DNA of 32,000 nucleotides from Candidatus Borrarchaeum yapensis. Its GTDB lineage: Archaea; Asgardarchaeota; Sifarchaeia; Borrarchaeales; Borrarchaeaceae. The notes below the pieces were generated by a model, which was given only the letters and a program-made list of their open reading frames with translations, was not told the DNA's origin and made no database searches. The stretch lies in NCBI GenBank assembly GCA_016840515.1, contig JAEOSF010000001.1, positions 50,447-82,446 on the forward strand, in the 5' to 3' direction. This document shows positions 8,265 through 31,817 of this stretch, one piece after another. Both the position numbers and the translations under genes were made by a program. Every line of letters starts with the position of its first letter. Within the stretch, counting starts at the first letter, position 1.

Positions 8265-9458
8265 TTATCCGCGGATGCGAACCACCTCAGGGTGCGCCAT
8301 CACCCAGTTATCCCTCTCCACCATGCGTGGACCTGGGAATATCGGATTTGAAAGATTAGCCACTCCATTGACATCAGCATTGAGAACTTTATTAGCTGTT
8401 TTGCATACATATAAACCACGGTGTTTTCGACCATTTCTATGTCTTTTACCGCAAAGACTACAGGTTTGAGAGGTCCAACTTTCGTCTATCGTTTTGACAA
8501 TCATCCCAAAATTCTCGGCTGTTATGTTTAACCGATCGACAATATAGCGAAAACTCCAGAAGTTATGGATCATTGCGTTGGTTTTTTTCCCCTTATCATT
8601 ATCCACTCGGATATGGGTTAAATCACCTACCGATATTTCAGAAACACCCTTCTCATAACAGTCCTTGACGAATCGATAGATCATAGTGTTGATGCCCTGT
8701 CGAAATCTCCGTTTCCTTGTCCGATATAACTTGTTTAGTTTTTTTGTGGGCCTAGGTTTCCCTCCTAATTTCCTTTGATAGTTAGCTATTTGTTTGTTCC
8801 AATACCACCAGTCACTCAACAACGACTTCCCAGAATAGAGTTTCGCACGAGTATCACCTTCAGTATAAGTGGTGAGGACATTGATCACTCCCAGATCGAT
8901 GTACGCCTTCTTGTTTCCTAATGGTTGATGTAGAGGTGTGCACTCTACTGGTTGATAGGCATACCATCCTTTCGAGAGCATATCAAAGTGAATTTCAAGA
9001 CGTCCTTGTTTTCCATGCCAGTTTAAGTTTCCATGGTAGGTAATCGCTAATTTATTGGGCAACAAAAGCCGTCTGGCTTCAAATTTATAACAATCTGTAC
9101 GTATGAGTGACCTTAAAATTCGCTTGCCTGTTTTTCGATCTTTCCAGTAGCCAGGAGGTCTAATGACCTTGATATGAGGAGACAACTTCCCCTGCTTCTT
9201 TTTTCTTAAAAGTGCAAAAAAGGATTTCCAAGCCTCATTATTCTTGCGGATGATCTGTTGCGTTGTTGCAGAACCGATCTGAGGTGAAAAGTCCTGATAT
9301 TCTTCAGTGGTATCCCAGTCTAGAGTTCCATCGAAGAAGGATTGTCGCCGCTTAAAGGTTATTTTATTCCATAAGACAGAAGATAACGTGCATAAGGCAA
9401 ATAGTTTTGCCTCTTGATCCTCATCAGGAACTAATTTAAGGATATTAGTTCTTCTCAA
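8265..9458 (-). CDS. tnpB: TnpB / IS605 OrfB-family RNA-guided endonuclease
   Basis: 397 aa. N-terminal 'ILKLVPDEDQ...', RuvC-I 'AYIDLGVINVLT', C-terminal 'WTSQTCSLCGKR...' Zn-ribbon and RuvC-III 'NADVNGVANL'. The second Cys pair of the ribbon looks degenerate ('YVCKTANK'). Confidence 0.9.
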   Translation of the reverse strand: MRRTNILKLVPDEDQEAKLFALCTLSSVLWNKITFKRRQSFFDGTLDWDTTEEYQDFSPQIGSATTQQIIRKNNEAWKSFFALLRKKKQGKLSPHIKVIRPPGYWKDRKTGKRILRSLIRTDCYKFEARRLLLPNKLAITYHGNLNWHGKQGRLEIHFDMLSKGWYAYQPVECTPLHQPLGNKKAYIDLGVINVLTTYTEGDTRAKLYSGKSLLSDWWYWNKQIANYQRKLGGKPRPTKKLNKLYRTRKRRFRQGINTMIYRFVKDCYEKGVSEISVGDLTHIRVDNDKGKKTNAMIHNFWSFRYIVDRLNITAENFGMIVKTIDESWTSQTCSLCGKRHRNGRKHRGLYVCKTANKVLNADVNGVANLSNPIFPGPRMVERDNWVMAHPEVVRIRG

Positions 9459-18260: not shown

Positions 18261-19448
18261 TTAGCGATAACTGTCAACTACACCTGCTGAATAGGCAACA
18301 AGTCTTGGCAATTCTAAAACGCGAATGCGTTCTCTGTAAGCCCTCATTCCAATTGAATGATGACACGTAGGGCAAGTCGTGAGAATATATTGTACACCTA
18401 ACTTAGCTGCGTCTTTGACAATTTCATCACTTAGATCGTTTCTTAGTTCAGTGTATGGTACACGGATCGGTCCACCGCAACATCTCGCGTCTCCTTTTGT
18501 TTCTGGTAACTCAACGAACTCAATACCTGGAATACTTTCTATGATCTTCCGAGGAGGGTCGTATTTAAGTGCGTATCTCCCGAGATGGCATGGATCCTTG
18601 AAGGTAACCTTTCCCTCAAGGGGTTTCGTCATTTTTATTTTACCATCATCGATTAAACGTTCAAGCACTTCCGAAATATGATATGCTTTTGGAGTATCCG
18701 GAGAGATTGCTTTATACTCCTCATTGAAGACTGAAGCGCACATCGGACATGCTGTGATTATAGTCTCAATCCCTCGCGATTTAAAGAGTTCGATGTTTTT
18801 CTTAGCAGCTTTCTCAAAATATGGTTTGAATCCTAACCAACTAAGAAATCCTCCGCAACAACTCTCTGAATCGAACATCGTAAACTCTTCTCCAGCGGCT
18901 TTCAAGAGTTTAACTCCCGCACGTGAATTATCGGGATAATCAATAGTCCCTACACAACCAGCGTAATAGAGCGTTGAAGATTCCTTTGGTAAGGTTGCTT
19001 TTATTTCGCCAAAAACCTCGTTGAACACGACAGGATAATCCATTCCATGGGTATTTCCTTTCTCAAGAATGCTGTCAGCAATACCCCTATGCTCTGAAAG
19101 CGTATAATTGTTGTCGGCTAGATATTCACGCACGCGATCCATAACGTCTACCACTTTTATTTTTGCTGGACAGTGTTCCTCACACTTTTTGCACAATGTG
19201 CATGTGTAAAGAATTTCCATTGCATAATCATCAACGGGAAATCCTCCTTCAATGAGAGCTCGCTCTAGCATGATCCTTCCTCGACAGTTGTAACTTTCCA
19301 TCTGTGTAGCATCAAAAATCGGACATGCAAACCTACAAAATCCGCATCGTACGCATCTGTATGTTTCTGTTTCAGCATCAGCGTCAATCCTCATTTTCTT
19401 ATGTTTTGGTTTAAGCATTGTACCCGAAACTACATCTTCTTGTGTCAT
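18261..19448 (-). CDS. glcF: GlcF/HdrD-like Fe-S oxidoreductase (2x[4Fe-4S] plus two CCG domains)
   Basis: 395 aa. 'CVRCGFCRFACP', 'CTLCKKCEEHCP', 'YYAGC', 'SCCGG', 'ACPMC', 'DPCH', 'ARCCGG', 'TCPTC'. The start is 2 nt after the upstream gene's stop. Confidence 0.85.
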   Translation of the reverse strand: MTQEDVVSGTMLKPKHKKMRIDADAETETYRCVRCGFCRFACPIFDATQMESYNCRGRIMLERALIEGGFPVDDYAMEILYTCTLCKKCEEHCPAKIKVVDVMDRVREYLADNNYTLSEHRGIADSILEKGNTHGMDYPVVFNEVFGEIKATLPKESSTLYYAGCVGTIDYPDNSRAGVKLLKAAGEEFTMFDSESCCGGFLSWLGFKPYFEKAAKKNIELFKSRGIETIITACPMCASVFNEEYKAISPDTPKAYHISEVLERLIDDGKIKMTKPLEGKVTFKDPCHLGRYALKYDPPRKIIESIPGIEFVELPETKGDARCCGGPIRVPYTELRNDLSDEIVKDAAKLGVQYILTTCPTCHHSIGMRAYRERIRVLELPRLVAYSAGVVDSYR

Positions 19449-19450
19449 CT

Positions 19451-20869
19451 CTAGTCATCCTCCAAGATGTTAATTCTTTGGCCTGGAATTGGTAATACGT
19501 GACCAGGGCAGAAAATATTTTTAGGATCAAATGCATTCTTGATCTTTTTCTTTAATTCTAACACTTTAGGTTGGTGTTCAACGGGCATCATCATAAGTTT
19601 GGAAACACCAATTCCATGTTCCCCAGTGACCGTCCCTTCTAATTCAACTGCTGCATGCCACAAGTCAACTAATGTTTGTAGGGCGCGCCTATGTTCATCA
19701 GGATCTCGTTCATCCCACAAAAGTATAGGATGAAGATTTCCATCTCCTGCGTGACCGAATGTGGCAATTTCGATCCCATTCTTTTCGCTTACTCTATCAA
19801 TCTCTTGGAACATCGTCGGTAGGTTTTTTAGAGGTACTGATACGTCTTCCATTCGTGCAGTTGGCCGTCGAAGTGTTAGTGCTGGAAATGCAGCCTTTCT
19901 AGCTGCCCAGACTTGTGTACATGTTTCCAGATCTCGTGCTGTTTCGGATTTGATTGCTCCCATCTCTTTGAACAAATCTTCCAGTTTATCTAGCCGCATC
20001 TCAACGTCATCTCTATTCCCATCTAATTCCACAAGGACAACAGCTCCGCATTCGGGGAATTTTAAGGTTCCTGAATATTCTTCTACTGCCTTAAGTGTCT
20101 TGTAATCAAGAATTTCTGTTCCTGAGGGGTCAAATCCTCTTTTAATGATTTCTCTGACGCACTTTCCTGCTTCAAAAGCGGAATTGAAATAGCCACTAGC
20201 CACGAGACGGACTGCTGGCAAAGGTTGAATTTTGAGCATTGCCTTGGTAATAATACCCAGAGTCCCTTCTGATCCTACAAAAAGTGAAACAAGATCGTAG
20301 CCACAAACAAATTTAATTGCTTTATTGCCGATATTAACGACACTCCCATCTGATAGGACGATTTCCAAGCCCATAACCCACTCTTCGGTGACTCCATATT
20401 TAAGTGCACGAATTCCGCCGCTATTATTATTTACCATACCGCCAATTGTAGCTGTTTTGTCCGATGCTGGATCCGGCGGAAAGTAAAATCCATAGGGCTC
20501 TAAGTAGGTATTGAGGTCTAGACACACCATACCAGGCTCAACGGTTATTAGAAAGTTCTCAACATCGAGATCTACAACCTTGTTCATCCTTGCGACCACC
20601 AAAATCAAACAATCAGGCTTTGCAGGGATGACACCCCCGCTAACGTTGCTTCCAGCCCCTCTTGGAATAATTGAGAATCCTTCTTCATTAGCTAGCTTCA
20701 CGATATCTGCGACCTCTTCTGTGGTATTAGCAAAGGCCACGGCTGCTGGCATACCTGTATCAATGCTAGCATCGCGTGAGTAAATATACAGATCGATTGC
20801 ATGATTTAAAACATTGTTTTCTCCAACTATTTTTTTCAGGGCGGGAATGATTGTGCCCTGCCAATCCAA
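19451..20869 (-). CDS. glcD: FAD-linked 2-hydroxyacid oxidase/dehydrogenase (GlcD / D-lactate dehydrogenase family)
   Basis: 472 aa. FAD_binding_4-type N-terminal half ('IIPRGAGSNVSGG', 'TVEPGMV...L') and C-terminal 'FGHAGDGNLHP', 'GTVTGEHGIG', 'DPKNIFCPG'. Confidence 0.88.
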   Translation of the reverse strand: MDWQGTIIPALKKIVGENNVLNHAIDLYIYSRDASIDTGMPAAVAFANTTEEVADIVKLANEEGFSIIPRGAGSNVSGGVIPAKPDCLILVVARMNKVVDLDVENFLITVEPGMVCLDLNTYLEPYGFYFPPDPASDKTATIGGMVNNNSGGIRALKYGVTEEWVMGLEIVLSDGSVVNIGNKAIKFVCGYDLVSLFVGSEGTLGIITKAMLKIQPLPAVRLVASGYFNSAFEAGKCVREIIKRGFDPSGTEILDYKTLKAVEEYSGTLKFPECGAVVLVELDGNRDDVEMRLDKLEDLFKEMGAIKSETARDLETCTQVWAARKAAFPALTLRRPTARMEDVSVPLKNLPTMFQEIDRVSEKNGIEIATFGHAGDGNLHPILLWDERDPDEHRRALQTLVDLWHAAVELEGTVTGEHGIGVSKLMMMPVEHQPKVLELKKKIKNAFDPKNIFCPGHVLPIPGQRINILEDD

Positions 20870-21118
20870 CGTATGTTTTTCTAAATCCGAAAGAGAAATT
20901 TTAAAGCCTCCTTTTCTTAATGATCCCTCTATCTAATTTGGTGTTAACTTTCTGTTTTTATTCTCTTCAAATTAATACAGAGTATTAATCACTGAAAGTT
21001 ATAAATGTTCAATATAACAAAATCTGACTATTTATTGTAGTACGCGCGCAAAAGAGTATAAACAATTTATAAATTGTAAGTGATATAAAACTCCTTTACA
21101 AACTTGTGAGGGTTAGTT

Positions 21119-22108
21119 TTGAGTGGAAAACCTAAAGTTTTTGTTTCTCGTATAATCCCAAAGCCAGCTTTAGATATGATCAATGTGGAGTGTAAGATGG
21201 AATTTAATGAAAGTGATATCCCTCTTACACAGGCTGAGTTTATTGAAAAAATGAAAACACTTGACGGGCTTGTTTGCCTACTTACTGACGACATTAATGC
21301 CGAAATCCTAAAATCCGTTAAAGAAGCAAACCCTAATTTTAAAGTAGTCAGCAATGTAGCAGTAGGTTACAACAACATCGACTGGAAGGCAGCCACAGAA
21401 TTAGGTATCGCAGTATCCAATACCCCAGGAGTTCTAGATGACACAACTGCAGATTTTACCTGGGCACTTCTCATGGCAGTTGCTCGACGCGTTGTCGAGG
21501 CAGATAAGTATTTCCGCCAAAAAACGTGGAAAGGATGGGGTATAATGCAGTTTCTTGGTTCTGATGTCTACGGGAAAACACTGGGAGTCGTTGGACTAGG
21601 AAGAATTGGACGAGTGGTAGCTAAAAGGGCTAAGAGTTTTGACATGAAAGTTCTTTATACAGATGTTGTCCGGTTCGAGGATCTGGAAAAAGAATTAGGA
21701 CTCCAATATGTGGATAAAGAGACAATTCTTAAAGAATCAGACTATGTAACTTTGCATGTTCCCTTGATTCCAGAAACTAAACACTATATTGGTGTAAAAG
21801 AACTAGAAATGATGAAAGAAACCGCGTATTTGATTAATGCATCACGAGGTCCCGTTGTAGATGAAAAAGCGCTCGTTAAAGCATTACAGGAGAAAAAGAT
21901 TGCTGGTGCTGGTTTGGATGTCTTTGAAATGGAGCCTAAAGCTGAACCAGAACTTTATGAAATGGATAACGTTGTGTTAGCACCACATATCGCAAGTGCA
22001 TCAATAGAGACTCGTACTAAAATGGCGACCATGGCTGCTGAAAATGTCATTGCTGGCGTTAAGGGACTCAAACCACCAAATTGTGTTAATCCAGAAATTT
22101 ATGGATAA
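21119..22108 (+). CDS. gyaR: glyoxylate/hydroxypyruvate reductase (D-isomer-specific 2-hydroxyacid dehydrogenase)
   Basis: 329 aa. 'KPKVFVSRIIP' N-terminus as in archaeal GyaR, 'GKTLGVVGLGRIGRVVAKRA' NAD motif, 'LINASRGPVVDEKAL', 'AGAGLDVFEMEP', 'PHIASAS'. TTG start. Confidence 0.85.
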   Translation: MSGKPKVFVSRIIPKPALDMINVECKMEFNESDIPLTQAEFIEKMKTLDGLVCLLTDDINAEILKSVKEANPNFKVVSNVAVGYNNIDWKAATELGIAVSNTPGVLDDTTADFTWALLMAVARRVVEADKYFRQKTWKGWGIMQFLGSDVYGKTLGVVGLGRIGRVVAKRAKSFDMKVLYTDVVRFEDLEKELGLQYVDKETILKESDYVTLHVPLIPETKHYIGVKELEMMKETAYLINASRGPVVDEKALVKALQEKKIAGAGLDVFEMEPKAEPELYEMDNVVLAPHIASASIETRTKMATMAAENVIAGVKGLKPPNCVNPEIYG

Positions 22109-22144
22109 CCCTCTAAAAAAATAAACAAAATAGGAGAGAAGATT

Positions 22145-23857
22145 ATGCCTAAAATGCAAGTAGCGGAAGTTATAGTAAAAATTCTTGAAGATGAAGGAGT
22201 AACAGCAATGTTTGGTATACCGGGCGCAGCAATAAATCCCGTCTACAAATACCTTGGGCAAACAACAAAAATTAAGCACTATATTGCTCGACATGAAGAA
22301 GGAGCATGCCATGCAGCTGACGGATATGCACGAGCAACTGGAAAAGTTGGCGTCTGTATCTGTACAAGCGGACCTGCAGCGACAAATTTTGTAACAGGTC
22401 TCTATACTGCTCAAGTTGACTCTATCCCAATTGTCGCAATTACTGGGACAGCAACGAGAGCAGTATTGGGTCAAGAGGCGTTTCAAGCGGTTGACATAGC
22501 AGAAATAGTTAAACCAGTGACTAAGAAAAGTTATTGTGTTAGGGAGCCTTATCGCCTCCCAGGTACTATGAGGGAAGCTTTTCGAATCGCTAGAGAAGGA
22601 AGACCCGGACCAGTGCTTATTGATCTCCCCGTTGACCTCCAGAGAACAGAAATTGAATATGATCCAGAAACAGATCGTAGTTTAGACTTTTCGACACCCA
22701 AAGCAAATGAAAAACAAATCAAGAAAGCAATTGATATGATCTTGGAAGCTAAGAATCCAATCATCTTAGCCGGAGGAGGAGTCATTATTTCGGGCGCTTC
22801 CAAAGAACTCCAAGAATTAGCAGAATATTTAAGTTTACCCATCTGTGCTAGTTACATGGGAAAGAGTGCTCTTGACACTAATCATCCATTATACGCGGGA
22901 CTAGTCGGTACCATCATGCAAACAAGACTTGGCAACAAATTATTCTTAGAGAGCGATCTTGTTCTAGCGGTTGGTGCCAGATTTGTTGACCGTCATACGG
23001 GTAAACTAGATGTTTACACGAAAGACAGAAAATTCATCCACATTGACATTGATCCTCTACAAATTGGCAAGATCGTCCCCACAGAGTTAGGAATTGTATC
23101 AGATGCCAAAGTAGCACTACAAATGATGATCGATCAAGCCAAAGCTCGAAATGCAAAAGTAATGCCAAATGAATGGGTATCGTCTATACCTGCCCGACGT
23201 AAAGAGCTTGCGAGAAGATTAGACTTTGATAATGTGCCAATCAAACCTCAAAGACTTTTCAAAGAAATAAATGAATTCTTTGATGATGACACAATTTTTG
23301 TGACGTCAGTCGGACTTAATCAGATTTGGAGCGGTCAATATCAAGAAATAAAGAAACCAGGACATTACAAGGTCTGTGGATGCGCGGGAACGTTGGGTTG
23401 GGATTTACCAGCTTCGATTGGGGCTAAAGTCGGATACGAGGAAATGGGAATGCCTGAAAAGAAGGTCGTAGGCATCACAGGAGATGGCGGATTAGGATTC
23501 ATGGTAGAAGAATTAGCGATGGCGGCCCACTATCAAACTCCAATAGTTATGCTGGTGCTTAACAATGGCTTCTTGAGCTTGATTAGACAAAACCAGAGCA
23601 TCGTTTATGACTATGAATATGCGGTAGATCTTACATACGATACAAATAAGCTTGAAAAACATGGAATAGGAATAGATTTCGTTAAGCTTGCAGAAGCTTT
23701 TGGACTATACGCTGAACGAGTCGAAAAACCTGAAGATCTAAAGGCTGCTTTCCAGAGAGGCCTAGATAACGCCCCAGCGGTATTAGATATTATATGTGAA
23801 CGTGAAACTAATTGTAGTATGGGGTTAGCTCTGGACGCTATAGCTGAAAGAGGATAA
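22145..23857 (+). CDS. gcl: glyoxylate carboligase (tartronate-semialdehyde synthase), ThDP enzyme
   Basis: 570 aa. The N-terminus 'MPKMQVAEVIVKILEDEGVTAMFGIPGAAINPVY' matches the Gcl-specific 'GVPGAAINPFY' rather than the acetolactate synthase form. Also 'GRPGPVLIDLPVD' and the ThDP motif 'GDGGLGFM...LNNG'. SD 'taggagag' lies upstream. Confidence 0.8.
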   Translation: MPKMQVAEVIVKILEDEGVTAMFGIPGAAINPVYKYLGQTTKIKHYIARHEEGACHAADGYARATGKVGVCICTSGPAATNFVTGLYTAQVDSIPIVAITGTATRAVLGQEAFQAVDIAEIVKPVTKKSYCVREPYRLPGTMREAFRIAREGRPGPVLIDLPVDLQRTEIEYDPETDRSLDFSTPKANEKQIKKAIDMILEAKNPIILAGGGVIISGASKELQELAEYLSLPICASYMGKSALDTNHPLYAGLVGTIMQTRLGNKLFLESDLVLAVGARFVDRHTGKLDVYTKDRKFIHIDIDPLQIGKIVPTELGIVSDAKVALQMMIDQAKARNAKVMPNEWVSSIPARRKELARRLDFDNVPIKPQRLFKEINEFFDDDTIFVTSVGLNQIWSGQYQEIKKPGHYKVCGCAGTLGWDLPASIGAKVGYEEMGMPEKKVVGITGDGGLGFMVEELAMAAHYQTPIVMLVLNNGFLSLIRQNQSIVYDYEYAVDLTYDTNKLEKHGIGIDFVKLAEAFGLYAERVEKPEDLKAAFQRGLDNAPAVLDIICERETNCSMGLALDAIAERG

Positions 23858-23887
23858 GTTAGAAAACCAATAAAAGGCGGTGAAAAA

Positions 23888-24802
23888 ATGAAGAAACACT
23901 GGGATCTTTATATGAAAATCGGTATAGTACATGGAATGGTGTTTCCAGAATGCCTTGCGGGAGAAGGTCCAATACTCGAAACGCTTACTAAGATAGCAGA
24001 AGATGGATTCTTCTCAGCAATTGACTATGGTGGATGCAAAGATCCAGCAATCAAAGGTGATGTAGCAGCACTCTTAAAAGCATCTCGCTTAACCGTCAAC
24101 TTCTCAGCACAACCAGCTCTATTGCTCCCGAAACTTAATTTGAACGCATTAGACGAAGAATTACGAAATCGATCTATACAGGCAATAAAATCATGTATTG
24201 ACGAAGCCTACGAAGTTGGTGCAGAATATTTAACCGTTCTAAGTGGTCCTTATCCAGGTGATGCAGATAGTGAAAAGGGAATGACATTGTTAATCGATTC
24301 CTTAAATCAACTTTGTGAATACGCGAAAAGTAAAGGAAATCTCGCATTAGCTTTAGAGGTCTTTGACCGTGAGATTGATAAAAAATCTTTGATAGGGCCA
24401 TCTGAATCAGCAGTAGAGGTTGCTAAGGCAGTACGTGAGGCAGGATATCCTACTTTTGGCTTAATGCATGATTTAAGTCATCTTCCATTGCTAAATGAAA
24501 CACCTGCCCATGCGTTGTCGACTACGAAGAAGTATTTAACACTTGTGCACTTGGGGAATTGCGTCAAAGACCCAAACAATCCTTTATATGGAGATCAACA
24601 TCCGATCTTCGGTATAGAAGGAGGAGAAAATGACGCAAAAGAGTTGGCAGAATACCTGAATGCTCTTTTTGAAATTGATTACTTAGAAAAAGGTAAACGC
24701 CCATTTGTTAGTTTCGAAGTAAAACCTCATAAAGGTATTACATCAGAGATGGCCATAGCAAATGTAAAACGTACATTAAAAGAGGCTTGGACACAAGTTT
24801 AA
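23888..24802 (+). CDS. xylose-isomerase-like TIM-barrel protein (hydroxypyruvate isomerase-like / sugar-phosphate isomerase-epimerase)
   Basis: 304 aa. It occupies the position taken by hyi after gcl in bacteria. 'LALEVFDRE' and 'GLMHDLSH...LVHLGN' resemble metal-ligand strands of the AP_endonuc_2 fold. The specific activity cannot be assigned. Confidence 0.6.
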   Translation: MKKHWDLYMKIGIVHGMVFPECLAGEGPILETLTKIAEDGFFSAIDYGGCKDPAIKGDVAALLKASRLTVNFSAQPALLLPKLNLNALDEELRNRSIQAIKSCIDEAYEVGAEYLTVLSGPYPGDADSEKGMTLLIDSLNQLCEYAKSKGNLALALEVFDREIDKKSLIGPSESAVEVAKAVREAGYPTFGLMHDLSHLPLLNETPAHALSTTKKYLTLVHLGNCVKDPNNPLYGDQHPIFGIEGGENDAKELAEYLNALFEIDYLEKGKRPFVSFEVKPHKGITSEMAIANVKRTLKEAWTQV

Positions 24803-25022
24803 GCCTTCTAATCTCCTTTTTATTTTTTGTCGCGAAAAAACTGTTTTTTCAAAAGATGAACGTGCGCTAAAAAAGCAAAGATATACTAAGGTATTGAAAT
24901 CTTCTTGAATTTGAAAAAACTGCGTTTGAGGGAAAATCTTTATATACAGTATAAGTATAAAGCACACAATATAAATTTCAATTGGTTTTAGGTGAGGTTG
25001 GGATGCTGTACCAAGGAGTTTA

Positions 25023-25070
25023 GGGACAAAGTTTGTCCCACGGATGTTCAGAACGGGAGAAACTTGTCCC
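25023..25070. promoter_or_regulatory. two related palindromes, GGGACAAAgTTTGTCCC (25023-25039) and GGGAGAAACTTGTCCC (25055-25070)
   Basis: The first is a perfect 8+1+8 palindrome. The second is an imperfect copy whose centre is ~31 bp downstream. A T6 run follows at 25084-25089. They lie in the 498-bp spacer upstream of the aminotransferase gene. Confidence 0.45.
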
Positions 25071-25300
25071 GTAGGTTTAGAGAGTTTTTTGAATACCAAA
25101 ACGATTAGCCGAGTATCGGCGAAATATGAAAACAACCTCAAGGAAATGAGTAAAGCAAGTGTACACCATAAACTTTGGAACCTTGTTTCACTACTTTTGC
25201 TAGACAACATACATGAGACCATTGTATCAGCATCAACGACAAAAGCTCAGCTTAATCTAGCTGACTTTCCCTATCAAAAGAACAATAGAGGTGAACAAAA

Positions 25301-26392
25301 TTGGCAAAACTTTTAATGATCCCTGGACCGATTAATTTTGATCCAGAAGTGATACGGGCTCTAAGTAAAGTAACTGTGAGTCACGTAGCACCAGAATTTA
25401 TCTCTATCTTTGGAGATACTCTAAGAAAACTAAGAGAGGTCTTCATTTCTGAAGGACAACCCTTTGTTATTGCGGGATCTGGGACGCTAGCTATGGAGAT
25501 GGCAGCAACCAATGTGATTCAAAGAGGAGAAAAAGCATTAGTAGTAAATAATGGGGTGTTCGGCGCGCGATACAGTGATATTTTCAAAGCACACGGAATC
25601 GCTGTTGACGAAATTCAAGTAGAATGGGGAAAGGCAGCAGATCCTACAGAGGTGCGTGAAAAACTTGAAAGTGACGACTATAAAGTCCTTACAGTGACAC
25701 ATGTTGATACATCGACTGGTATTGCGAACGACATCGAAGCCATTGGTAATGTTGTCAAAGATTTTGATACGATATTTATTGTAGACGCAGTATGTTCTCT
25801 TGCAGGACAACGATTGTATCAAGACAAACATCATGTAGATATATGCTTCACAGGTTCACAGAAGGCATTGGGCGTTCCTCCAGGGCTTGCAATACTGAAT
25901 TTCAACCAGAAGGCCTTAGACGCACACGCTAAACTTAAACATCCCGTTGAGTGTTTCTATACGTCCATTGACAACTGGTTGCCCATTATGCAAGCATATG
26001 AGCGCGGTGATCCAAGCTATTTCGGTACACCTGCAGTAAATTTAATCTATGCACTCCATGAAAGTGTAAAGCAAATAGTTAGCGAAGGAATGGAGGCACG
26101 GTTTGCGCGGCACGAAAAATTAGCAGAAATGATGCGCAAAGGTCTTACAGAGATGGACTTTAAACTCGTTCCTGAGGATGGATGGGCTGCAAATACAATG
26201 AGCGCAGTCTATCATAATGGCATTGCAGATGCGGACTTTAGAGGGCAATTATCACAAGAGGGCGTTATCGTGGCAGGCGGTTTGGGCAAACTGAAAGGTA
26301 AAATCTTTCGAATTGGCCATATGGGCTCTATTAATGCAAACGATGTCTCAGCAACACTAAACGCAATTCAACGAACTCTAAAAATGTTTTAA
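25301..26392 (+). CDS. class-V aminotransferase (serine/alanine-glyoxylate aminotransferase family)
   Basis: 363 aa. 'LLMIPGPINFDPEV', 'GSGTLAMEMA', 'VDAVCSLAG', 'FTGSQKALGVPPGL' (PLP-Lys). TTG start with GAGGTGA 6 nt upstream; an alternative ATG is at 25316. Confidence 0.85.
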   Translation: MAKLLMIPGPINFDPEVIRALSKVTVSHVAPEFISIFGDTLRKLREVFISEGQPFVIAGSGTLAMEMAATNVIQRGEKALVVNNGVFGARYSDIFKAHGIAVDEIQVEWGKAADPTEVREKLESDDYKVLTVTHVDTSTGIANDIEAIGNVVKDFDTIFIVDAVCSLAGQRLYQDKHHVDICFTGSQKALGVPPGLAILNFNQKALDAHAKLKHPVECFYTSIDNWLPIMQAYERGDPSYFGTPAVNLIYALHESVKQIVSEGMEARFARHEKLAEMMRKGLTEMDFKLVPEDGWAANTMSAVYHNGIADADFRGQLSQEGVIVAGGLGKLKGKIFRIGHMGSINANDVSATLNAIQRTLKMF

Positions 26393-30887: not shown

Positions 30888-31817
30888 TTAGTGAAAAAAA
30901 TCAATAATTTTTTTTGCAAGGATAACAGATGCGTTTTTTTGTGTCTCTTTAGTAGTTGAACCGATGTGGGGCGTGGCTATTACATTTGGTTCGTTTATTA
31001 GTTCCGATTTGCCTGGAGGTTCTTTCTCAAATACATCTAAAGCAGCACCTGCAACTTTTTCTGATCTAATTGCCTTTAGGAGTGCCTTTTCATCGACAAC
31101 TCCTCCACGGGAAGCATTGATTAGATAAACGCCGTCCTTCATTCGTGAAAACTCTCTTTCACCAATCATATGATATGTGGAGGACAAGAGAGGAACATGA
31201 AGCGTTATTACATCAGCATTCCTTAATATCACCTCAAGCGCATCTTTAGAAGGACCGAAAGGTTCAACATTCATTTGTTTGGCATTTTCTAACGCACTAT
31301 CAAGAACATCATAAGCTATAACAGTCATTTCAAATGATTTCGCTCGTTTTGCAACTTCTACTCCTATATTTCCAAACCCCACAATACCAAGTGTTTTTCC
31401 TTTTAATTCTAATCCCTTCAATTCCTTCTTAAGCCATTTTCCTTCTTTTAAACCTTTATCTCCAATCGGAATATGACGAAATAGAGCTATGATTAGCCCG
31501 ATGACTAACTCTGCTACCGATACACTAGGGGCATTGGGGGTATTAAATACAGTTATATTATATTCCTTCGCGGCCTCCAAATCAACATTATCTAAACCGA
31601 CACCTGCGCGACCAATTATTGTAAGCGATGATTCTGCAAGCAGGTCACGAGTTACCTTTGTAGCACTTCTAACAATAAGTACAGCATATTCCTTTAACAA
31701 TTCCTTAAGCACAGAAGAAGTTTCTCCAAACCGTTCATCAACTACGAAGCCTGCATCCTTCAGCATTTTTATTCCATCAGCATGAACAGGATCGGTGACG
31801 AGAACTCTTACAACCAA
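30888..31817 (-). CDS. serA: D-3-phosphoglycerate dehydrogenase-like (short-form) D-2-hydroxyacid dehydrogenase
   Basis: 309 aa. 'RVLVTDPV...', 'RAGVGLDNVDLEAA', 'GKTLGIVGFGNIGVEVAKRA', 'LINASRGGVVDEKAL', 'GAALDVFEKEP', 'PHIGSTT'. TTG start with GGAGGT 6 nt upstream. The substrate is not certain. Confidence 0.75.
   Translation of the reverse strand: MVVRVLVTDPVHADGIKMLKDAGFVVDERFGETSSVLKELLKEYAVLIVRSATKVTRDLLAESSLTIIGRAGVGLDNVDLEAAKEYNITVFNTPNAPSVSVAELVIGLIIALFRHIPIGDKGLKEGKWLKKELKGLELKGKTLGIVGFGNIGVEVAKRAKSFEMTVIAYDVLDSALENAKQMNVEPFGPSKDALEVILRNADVITLHVPLLSSTYHMIGEREFSRMKDGVYLINASRGGVVDEKALLKAIRSEKVAGAALDVFEKEPPGKSELINEPNVIATPHIGSTTKETQKNASVILAKKIIDFFH

Follow-up and report, generated by a model that had tools for sequence, protein, structure and literature searches.

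The genome of Candidatus Borrarchaeum yapensis, an Asgard archaeon, possesses a cassette of three genes that appears to serve the use of glyoxylate. It lies in a stretch of 32,000 nucleotides (contig JAEOSF010000001.1, positions 50,447 to 82,446), which is called the window here and in which the coordinates of the locus are counted. The cassette encodes a GyaR-type glyoxylate/hydroxypyruvate reductase, a thiamine diphosphate (ThDP) carboligase that resembles glyoxylate carboligase (Gcl) and is named GclL, and a putative isomerase or epimerase with a triose-phosphate isomerase barrel, named TIM. The module is probably a bacterial-derived variant of the glycerate pathway for glyoxylate use, in which a Gcl relative that retains the ThDP-activating glutamate is combined with an isomerase other than hydroxypyruvate isomerase (Hyi).

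The original prediction placed four genes here, the last of them an aminotransferase gene after a spacer of 498 bp, together with a GIPGAAINPVY motif in the ThDP enzyme and a divergent GlcD/GlcF pair. All of these were found in their places through open reading frames (ORFs), Pfam, and NCBIfam. The features of the locus are as follows.

18261..19448, minus strand: GlcF/HdrD-like iron-sulfur subunit with two CCG domains and a 4Fe-4S dicluster (Pfam CCG, Fer4_8)
19451..20869, minus strand: GlcD-like FAD-linked 2-hydroxyacid dehydrogenase of glycolate or D-lactate type (PF01565, PF02913)
20870..21118, no strand: divergent intergenic region between the glcD-like and gyaR-like genes, 249 bp, presumed promoter region
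21119..22108, plus strand: GyaR-type glyoxylate/hydroxypyruvate reductase, a D-2-hydroxyacid dehydrogenase of 329 aa (PF02826, PF00389)
22145..23857, plus strand: GclL, Gcl-like three-domain ThDP carboligase of 570 aa, Glu51 kept (RHEEGA)
23888..24802, plus strand: TIM, xylose-isomerase-like TIM-barrel isomerase/epimerase of 304 aa (PF01261, 64.7 bits)
24803..25300, no strand: spacer between the cassette and the aminotransferase gene, 498 bp, probably with a separate promoter or regulatory region
25301..26392, plus strand: AGXT-type class-V aminotransferase of 363 aa (PF00266, 94.3 bits)

Within the plus-strand block, 36 bp separate gyaR from gclL and 30 bp separate gclL from the TIM gene, and the aminotransferase gene follows the latter after the 498 bp of the spacer. 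An antisense ORF of 148 aa in the spacer (24776-25222) has no Pfam match. The closest public records, with 98% protein identity, are those of Ca. Borrarchaeum weybense and of ‘Promethearchaeota’ metagenome-assembled genomes (MAGs).

By sequence comparison, GclL is Gcl-like and is not an acetolactate synthase (ALS). Its best solved relative is Escherichia coli Gcl with 538 bits, while the best ALS structure reaches 336 bits, and its full-length identity to E. coli Gcl (NC_000913) is 45%. The best NCBIfam models are also those of Gcl, PRK11269 (725.3 bits, cut-off 791) and TIGR01504 (601.9 bits, cut-off 711.2). GclL carries the Gcl-type motifs GxPGAAINP (as GIPGAAINPVY), RF.xRHTG, GLxQI, and LIRQ, and it has neither of the ALS motifs GQHQMW and RQWQ. 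A maximum likelihood tree of 52 ThDP proteins was built by a quick search with Shimodaira–Hasegawa-like approximate likelihood ratio (SH-aLRT) support and no bootstrap. In this tree, GclL, its glutamate-retaining relatives, E. coli Gcl, and two valine-type representatives form one clade with 99% SH-aLRT support, and ALS and the genome’s own ALS-like paralogues lie outside of it. Scores against a library reduced to clusters of 50% identity fall clearly, from 481 to 416 bits, at the boundary between the Gcl-like superclade and the ALS cloud. Scores, identity, and tree thus group the enzyme with Gcl and not with the ALS, as was originally predicted. A reading of GclL as an oxalyl-CoA decarboxylase was rejected, as the structures of that enzyme score about 165 bits against the 538 bits for Gcl. 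No sulfoacetaldehyde acetyltransferase is among the 60 solved relatives listed for GclL.

Branched-chain amino acid synthesis appears to be provided for elsewhere. The genome, which is 100% complete with 10% contamination as estimated from marker genes, contains four further ThDP paralogues. Two of these directly precede an ilvN small-subunit gene, which gives two IlvB-IlvN pairs (G000:C17:59741-61968 and G000:C35:55276-57517) for the large and small subunits of acetohydroxyacid synthase. Branched-chain amino acid synthesis is therefore covered without GclL, and no ilvN gene is found beside gclL. Given the contamination, one of the two pairs may stem from another organism.

The enzyme usually cited for doing without the cofactor-activating glutamate is Gcl. 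The finding of valine at position 51 reportedly goes back to Kaplun et al. in Nat Chem Biol in 2008. A change of the ThDP-activating glutamate to valine at standard position 51 has been called a hallmark of the Gcl family as a whole (PMC3534367). At this position GclL has glutamate (ARHEEGA), whereas E. coli Gcl has valine (ARHVEGA). The form RHEEGA or HHEEGA is present in 119 of the 120 best GclL homologues, and the remaining one is a fragment of 431 aa that does not include the region. Judged from these alignments, GclL is a member of a large, mostly bacterial clade of Gcl relatives with the ThDP-activating glutamate. Position 484 (LIRQNQSIV, residues ~480-486) is serine in the Borrarchaeum proteins and lysine in most of the glutamate-retaining relatives, including that of Sifarchaeum. 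The Gcl identity put forward earlier is upheld by the clade and by the best-scoring models, but the substitution by valine is missing and both curated Gcl cut-offs are missed. In the tree, valine-type Gcl forms a long branch within the glutamate-retaining radiation, a join that links long branches and does not establish nesting.

The TIM-barrel protein was expected to be a counterpart of Hyi by its position. A PF01261 gene does indeed follow gclL after 30 bp, but it is not a homologue of Hyi at the family level. The Hyi model TIGR03234 has no match to TIM in the NCBIfam search, and comparison with E. coli Hyi gives E = 4.1 with BLASTP and a probability of 2.6% with hhalign. When the genome was searched with TIGR03234, the sole listed match was a different gene (51 bits against a cut-off of 353). 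The AlphaFold2 model of TIM, with a mean predicted local distance difference test score (pLDDT) of 96, is a xylose-isomerase-like TIM barrel. The structures nearest to it are those of ketose 3-epimerases, MJ1311, and xylose isomerases, all tied at Z scores of 27-28.6 (Foldseek, VIA-align), with a root-mean-square deviation of 2.3-2.7 Å over ~260 residues and 17-23% identity. Since these scores are tied, the fold is uninformative on the substrate of TIM. The ESM Atlas likewise gives generic ‘xylose isomerase-like’ clusters only.

Four residues of TIM, E157, D195, H221, and E277, are conserved across 36 homologues. By analogy with the ketose 3-epimerases, we read them as the metal site of the superfamily, and from the model TIM is very probably an active metal-dependent isomerase or epimerase. 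Metal-dependent isomerases and epimerases of this superfamily act via an enediolate, which is the chemistry needed for the interconversion of tartronate semialdehyde and hydroxypyruvate. It is proposed that TIM is a non-orthologous replacement of hydroxypyruvate isomerase, its substrate being inferred from genomic context only. More distant homologues of TIM (31-41% identity) are present in 26 other Asgard genomes, for example at G132:C36:107557-108411 and G145:C155:4568-5467. Most of these distant matches sit inside open frames of ~680-740 aa and may be a fused domain.

The neighbours of GclL relatives can indicate the pathway in which these enzymes take part. A total of 80 metagenome loci encode members of the GclL family (53-91% identity), and neighbours were counted in those 49 whose flanks span 4 kb or more, by tblastn and clustering and then by Pfam and NCBIfam. 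At least one homologue of the glyoxylate or glycerate pathway is present in 27 of the 49 loci, where homology was scored with the window’s own proteins, and a match called GlcD-like need not be a glycolate oxidase. The neighbours were an IclR-type regulator (21 loci, just upstream where seen), GlcD-like (17) and GlcF-like (15) proteins, an iron-dependent alcohol dehydrogenase (Fe-ADH)-like gene (10, usually directly after GclL), a LarA-like racemase (10), GyaR-like proteins (4), GlxR (3), TIM (3), MOFRL glycerate kinase (2), and AGXT-like proteins (2). The best model for the regulator is BhcR, which is glyoxylate-responsive; IclR, AllR, KdgR, and PcaR also match, and all of these are under their cut-offs. 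The GlcD/GlcF-like matches are often joined by a second, weaker GlcD-like match that may be GlcE. Of the neighbours that recur or are annotated in these loci, none was identified as a branched-chain amino acid gene. The expected glyoxylate/glycerate context is thus borne out by glycolate-oxidase-like, GlxR, glycerate kinase, and IclR genes beside GclL relatives.

The slot after GclL is occupied by TIM, the Fe-ADH-like gene, or GlxR, and no locus holds two of them. Such mutual exclusion is expected of alternative enzymes that handle one product. TIM also follows GclL in loci outside the Asgard archaea. In L108 the order is amidase, GclL, TIM, 2-hydroxyacid dehydrogenase, and a pair resembling succinyl/malate-CoA ligase; in L112 an IclR gene accompanies GclL, TIM, and a 2-hydroxyacid dehydrogenase; in L058 a MOFRL glycerate kinase precedes GclL, TIM, and a GlcD-like protein; and in L063 a LarA-like protein precedes the same three. 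The Fe-ADH-like gene encodes 427 aa (e.g., L071:1983-4563; also L074, L075, L076, L105, and L114) and is often followed by a homologue of the LarA-type nickel-pincer 2-hydroxyacid racemase. It may be a third way to process tartronate semialdehyde, perhaps with a glycerate racemase.

The three genes of the cassette appear to belong together. GyaR, GclL, and TIM are found with the same flanks in three Borrarchaeum loci (L007, L008, and L045). They are also present in Ca. Sifarchaeum subterraneum with unrelated flanks, an Ogg glycosylase and a methyltransferase on one side and an RNase E/G-DUF402 protein and NAC on the other. Between the Borrarchaeum and Sifarchaeum orthologues, the ratio of nonsynonymous to synonymous substitution rates (dN/dS) is 0.05-0.06 for each of the three. 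On the basis of this ratio, the cassette genes are real and functional and are under strong purifying selection. Out of 400 Asgard genomes, GclL was identified in five, all of them Sifarchaeia: four of the five genomes of the genus Borrarchaeum, including that of the window, and the sole other genome of the class. Orthologues of TIM (at least 85% identity) are present in exactly these five genomes and are always beside GclL. A search of the literature returned no paper that pairs glyoxylate carboligase with Asgard or Sifarchae*.

The nearest non-Asgard relatives of all three proteins are bacterial. Those of GclL (59-65% identity) are from Poribacteria, Nitrospinota, Bacillota, Chloroflexota, and Planctomycetes, and those of TIM (52-57%) are from NC10, Nitrospinota, Anaerolineae, and Atribacteria. 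GyaR is 62-69% identical to its bacterial relatives (Nitrospinota 69%, NC10 64%), and its homologues in other Asgard genomes reach 57% at most. In the ThDP tree, the Asgard GclL proteins form one clade with 100% support, and a bacterial group with proteins from Poribacteria and Nitrospinota, among others, is placed as their sister, though support for this is weak (80). Members of another sub-branch occur in two Nitrososphaeria MAGs, which argues for separate transfers into archaea. The composition of the cassette carries no island signal, as its GC content at third codon positions and its codon-usage distance lie at the 35th-73rd percentiles of the genome. This ordinary composition, together with the presence of the cassette in two genera at ~86% identity, points to an old transfer into the ancestor of the Sifarchaeia. 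The suggestion of a horizontally acquired island is therefore retained in its distribution (5 of 400 Asgard genomes) and its bacterial relatives but not in its composition, and any transfer is old. The best reading of these comparisons is that the cassette was acquired from bacteria by the ancestor of the Sifarchaeia, that is, of Borrarchaeum and Sifarchaeum, and that its composition has since been fully ameliorated.

Other parts of a glyoxylate pathway were sought in the rest of the genome. Two genes for MOFRL-type glycerate 2-kinases are present, so the glycerate kinase that was to be sought elsewhere does exist, and no GlxK-type kinase was found. A tartronate-semialdehyde reductase was not recovered. 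Homologues of GlxR and Hyi were not found by tblastn, and PF03446, the NAD-binding domain of GlxR-type dehydrogenases, has weak matches only (≤31 bits) in the genome. TIM and GyaR would stand in for GlxR. Isocitrate lyase and malate synthase were not found in the genome, and glycolate or glycine would therefore have to be the source of glyoxylate. No route that consumes glyoxylate was found other than the Gcl-type one.

In the proposed pathway, GclL would decarboxylate glyoxylate on ThDP and join it to a second glyoxylate to give tartronate semialdehyde and CO2. TIM, with its metal, would interconvert tartronate semialdehyde and hydroxypyruvate and so fill the role of Hyi without being Hyi. 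GyaR would reduce hydroxypyruvate, or possibly the semialdehyde directly, to D-glycerate and replace the missing GlxR. The MOFRL-type glycerate 2-kinase could then form 2-phosphoglycerate, which would enter lower glycolysis. Glyoxylate could be supplied from glycolate by the divergent GlcD/GlcF-like dehydrogenase and from glycine by the downstream AGXT-type aminotransferase. The direction of flux through this pathway is inferred.

The best NCBIfam model for GyaR is the glyoxylate reductase PRK13243, whose cut-off of 455 bits is missed (402.4 bits). Among solved proteins, those most similar to GyaR over the full length are 5AOV, 6BII, and 2DBQ (~310 bits), all of them glyoxylate reductases from Pyrococcus. 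A second D-2-hydroxyacid dehydrogenase of 309 aa is encoded ~4.5 kb downstream (30888-31817, minus strand) and is 41% identical to the GyaR of the cassette over 248 residues. The aminotransferase has yeast AGX1 (2BKW), the Sulfolobus serine-pyruvate aminotransferase (3ZRP), and other alanine:glyoxylate aminotransferases as its best solved relatives, and it reaches no curated equivalog cut-off in NCBIfam. Its gene keeps its place after the cassette in two Borrarchaeum loci (L007 and L008). In Sifarchaeum it is not downstream of the cassette on the main cassette contig (C144, locus L009) but on a separate contig, and its membership of the module is therefore plausible but weaker. On that contig (G309:C244:548-4452), the AGXT orthologue (84%) is ~2.5 kb from a TIM fragment that matches residues 191-304 at 94% identity, which could reflect strain heterogeneity or a duplicated region.

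The GlcD-like protein scores 435.7 bits with the glcD model TIGR00387, under the cut-off of 567.9, and the GlcF-like protein matches TfrB, LdhH, and GlcF, all under cut-off. The GlcF/HdrD-like protein is a candidate electron-transfer partner of the GlcD-like dehydrogenase. In the Borrarchaeum loci L007 and L008 this pair adjoins the cassette, in the Sifarchaeum locus L009 it does not, and a cluster of HdrA-MvhD, HdrBC, and lipoyl-carrier genes is next to the cassette only in Borrarchaeum. The cassette may be coupled to this Hdr cluster, including in the sense of the earlier idea that it would provide the cluster’s substrate logic. The aminotransferase and the GlcD/F-Hdr genes are thus linked to the cassette in only part of the lineage. 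An IS605-family OrfB/TnpB-like gene with PF01385 and a Cas12f-like TNB domain is present at 8265-9458 on the minus strand, ~9 kb from the Hdr cluster.

Several observations weigh against a glycerate-pathway variant, besides the scoring of neighbours with the window’s own proteins. GclL stays under both curated Gcl cut-offs and barely passes the ALS model TIGR00118 (545.8 bits against 538.35), though this is 180 bits below its score with the Gcl model. Three active-site positions of E. coli Gcl are changed in it (Val51 to Glu, Asn283 to Asp, and Arg484 to Ser), and we know of no member of the glutamate-retaining clade that has been assayed. TIM resembles the ketose 3-epimerases as much as anything, nothing links it specifically to Hyi, and it follows GclL in only 3 of the 49 loci (5 of all 80). 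In two loci, L049 (9690-16499) and L050, GclL relatives lie in a sugar-transport operon with ABC permeases, a PF12831 FAD oxidoreductase, and a glycosidase-like protein of 709 aa. The family may therefore be non-uniform in function, and part of it may serve sugar-derived substrates. At least 10 further GlcD-like genes, most of them next to a GlcF-like gene, are on other contigs of the genome (G000 contigs C93, C114, C57, C118, C106, C123, C120, C78, and others), so homology by itself does not tell which substrate the pair beside the cassette uses. In another reading, which is considered unlikely, the glutamate-retaining enzymes catalyse a different carboligation or decarboxylation. Hydroxypyruvate or glycolaldehyde units would, for example, be joined to a C4 ketose such as erythrulose, TIM would be a ketose 3-epimerase or isomerase acting on the product, and GyaR would supply or remove hydroxypyruvate. 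The residues at positions 51, 283, and 484 (Ser or Lys), the missed Gcl cut-offs, and the sugar operons agree with this, as does the presence of a Thermotoga L-ketose 3-epimerase solved with L-erythrulose among the closest structures of TIM. However, structural Z scores do not discriminate within the TIM superfamily, and it is GlcD/F-like, GlxR, MOFRL glycerate kinase, and IclR/BhcR-like genes that recur beside family members. The slot held by TIM, the Fe-ADH-like gene, or GlxR also fits alternative routes from one semialdehyde product.

It is more doubtful still that the genes are neighbours and not one pathway. GyaR would then be mainly a glyoxylate reductase, acting as a redox sink or in detoxification by forming glycolate, and would cycle glycolate, glyoxylate, and glycine with the aminotransferase and GlcD/F, while GclL and TIM served something else. 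In favour of this are the name of GyaR’s closest solved relatives, glyoxylate reductase, and the separation of the aminotransferase and GlcD/F genes from the cassette in some relatives. Against it, the three genes are only 30-36 bp apart and stay together where their flanks differ, the Asgard genomes with GclL are exactly those with a TIM orthologue, and GclL, TIM, and a 2-hydroxyacid dehydrogenase recur together in another gene order outside the Asgard archaea. The 570-aa protein is very unlikely to be the large subunit of a biosynthetic acetolactate/acetohydroxyacid synthase. The Gcl models and structures score far higher, the tree parts GclL from ALS with 99% support, the ALS motifs are missing, and the small-subunit genes belong to the two IlvB-IlvN pairs elsewhere, not to this locus. 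Branched-chain amino acid genes are also missing among the identified neighbours. GclL does keep the glutamate found in ALS, and it does clear TIGR00118. Relatives of GclL are named ‘biosynthetic-type acetolactate synthase large subunit’ by the NCBI pipeline (several of them) and ‘tartronate-semialdehyde synthase’ by JGI, a split that arises because these proteins fall under the Gcl cut-offs yet just clear TIGR00118.

The glycerate-pathway variant, which remains the probable reading, bears on several matters. A large natural clade of Gcl relatives that keep the glutamate in glyoxylate-type contexts provides a direct natural comparison of two solutions to ThDP catalysis. The naming of the same proteins as ALS by NCBI and as tartronate-semialdehyde synthase by JGI exposes a systematic misnaming in the databases. 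The cassette would show a C2-acid pathway from bacteria that has become fixed in a single Asgard class, the Sifarchaeia, and it suggests glycolate or glyoxylate as the substrate of one of the many GlcD/F-Hdr modules in Asgard genomes. Annotation that relies on a search for glxR or hyi would miss the route, since TIM and GyaR appear to take the place of Hyi and GlxR. A wider idea can be offered only tentatively. The glutamate-retaining form may be the ancestral and by far the most widespread Gcl in anaerobes, and the Proteobacterial Gcl with Val51 a fast-evolving offshoot. If this is true, the statement that Gcl works without the canonical glutamate is limited to a sub-branch. In the Sifarchaeia, the glutamate-retaining form would have as its partners an isomerase other than Hyi, GyaR, and a glycolate dehydrogenase linked to Hdr, and together they would allow an anaerobic fermentation of glycolate or glycine.

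The components of the cassette can be compared with known systems. The ketose 3-epimerases and their kin (P. cichorii D-tagatose 3-epimerase, M. jannaschii MJ1311 (3WQO), and T. maritima L-ketose 3-epimerase) share with TIM the fold and the Glu-Asp-His-Glu metal site. TIM differs from them in that it is only 17-23% identical, matches no curated family, and is found in a context of C2/C3 acids rather than sugars. The glyoxylate/hydroxypyruvate reductases of Pyrococcus (5AOV, 6BII, 2DBQ) match the GyaR of the cassette over the full length with ~310 bits and have the same two domains, but GyaR is nearer to bacterial proteins (62-69%) than to other Asgard homologues (≤57%) and is under the PRK13243 cut-off.

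The closest counterpart of the whole is the gcl-hyi-glxR-glxK pathway of E. coli (2PAN; NC_000913 b0507-b0514). GclL is 45% identical to its Gcl and shares the same three ThDP domains, the motifs, and the clade. In both cases a gene for a TIM-barrel protein directly follows the carboligase gene, and the allR gene before gcl has its parallel in the IclR-family regulator upstream of bacterial GclL relatives. Unlike E. coli Gcl, GclL has Glu51, Asp283, and Ser484 (Lys in most relatives) and is under the Gcl cut-offs. Borrarchaeum is without a Hyi-family TIM barrel, GlxR, and a GlxK-type kinase, and has instead a GyaR-type reductase and a MOFRL-type kinase; the host of its cassette is an anaerobic archaeon. 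On the basis of proteomics, another anaerobe, ‘Ca. Dichloromethanomonas elyunquensis’ RM, has been proposed to ferment glyoxylate via Gcl, Hyi, Ghr/GlxR, and glycerate kinase (PMC8092247). This strict anaerobe is a bacterium, also has GlxR, and is supported by proteomic evidence, whereas the Borrarchaeum cassette is known from genomes alone. The likeness lies in the route, as in strain RM too an anaerobe is proposed to convert glyoxylate to tartronate semialdehyde, glycerate, and then pyruvate and acetyl-CoA, with an isomerase and a glyoxylate/hydroxypyruvate reductase (PMC8092247).

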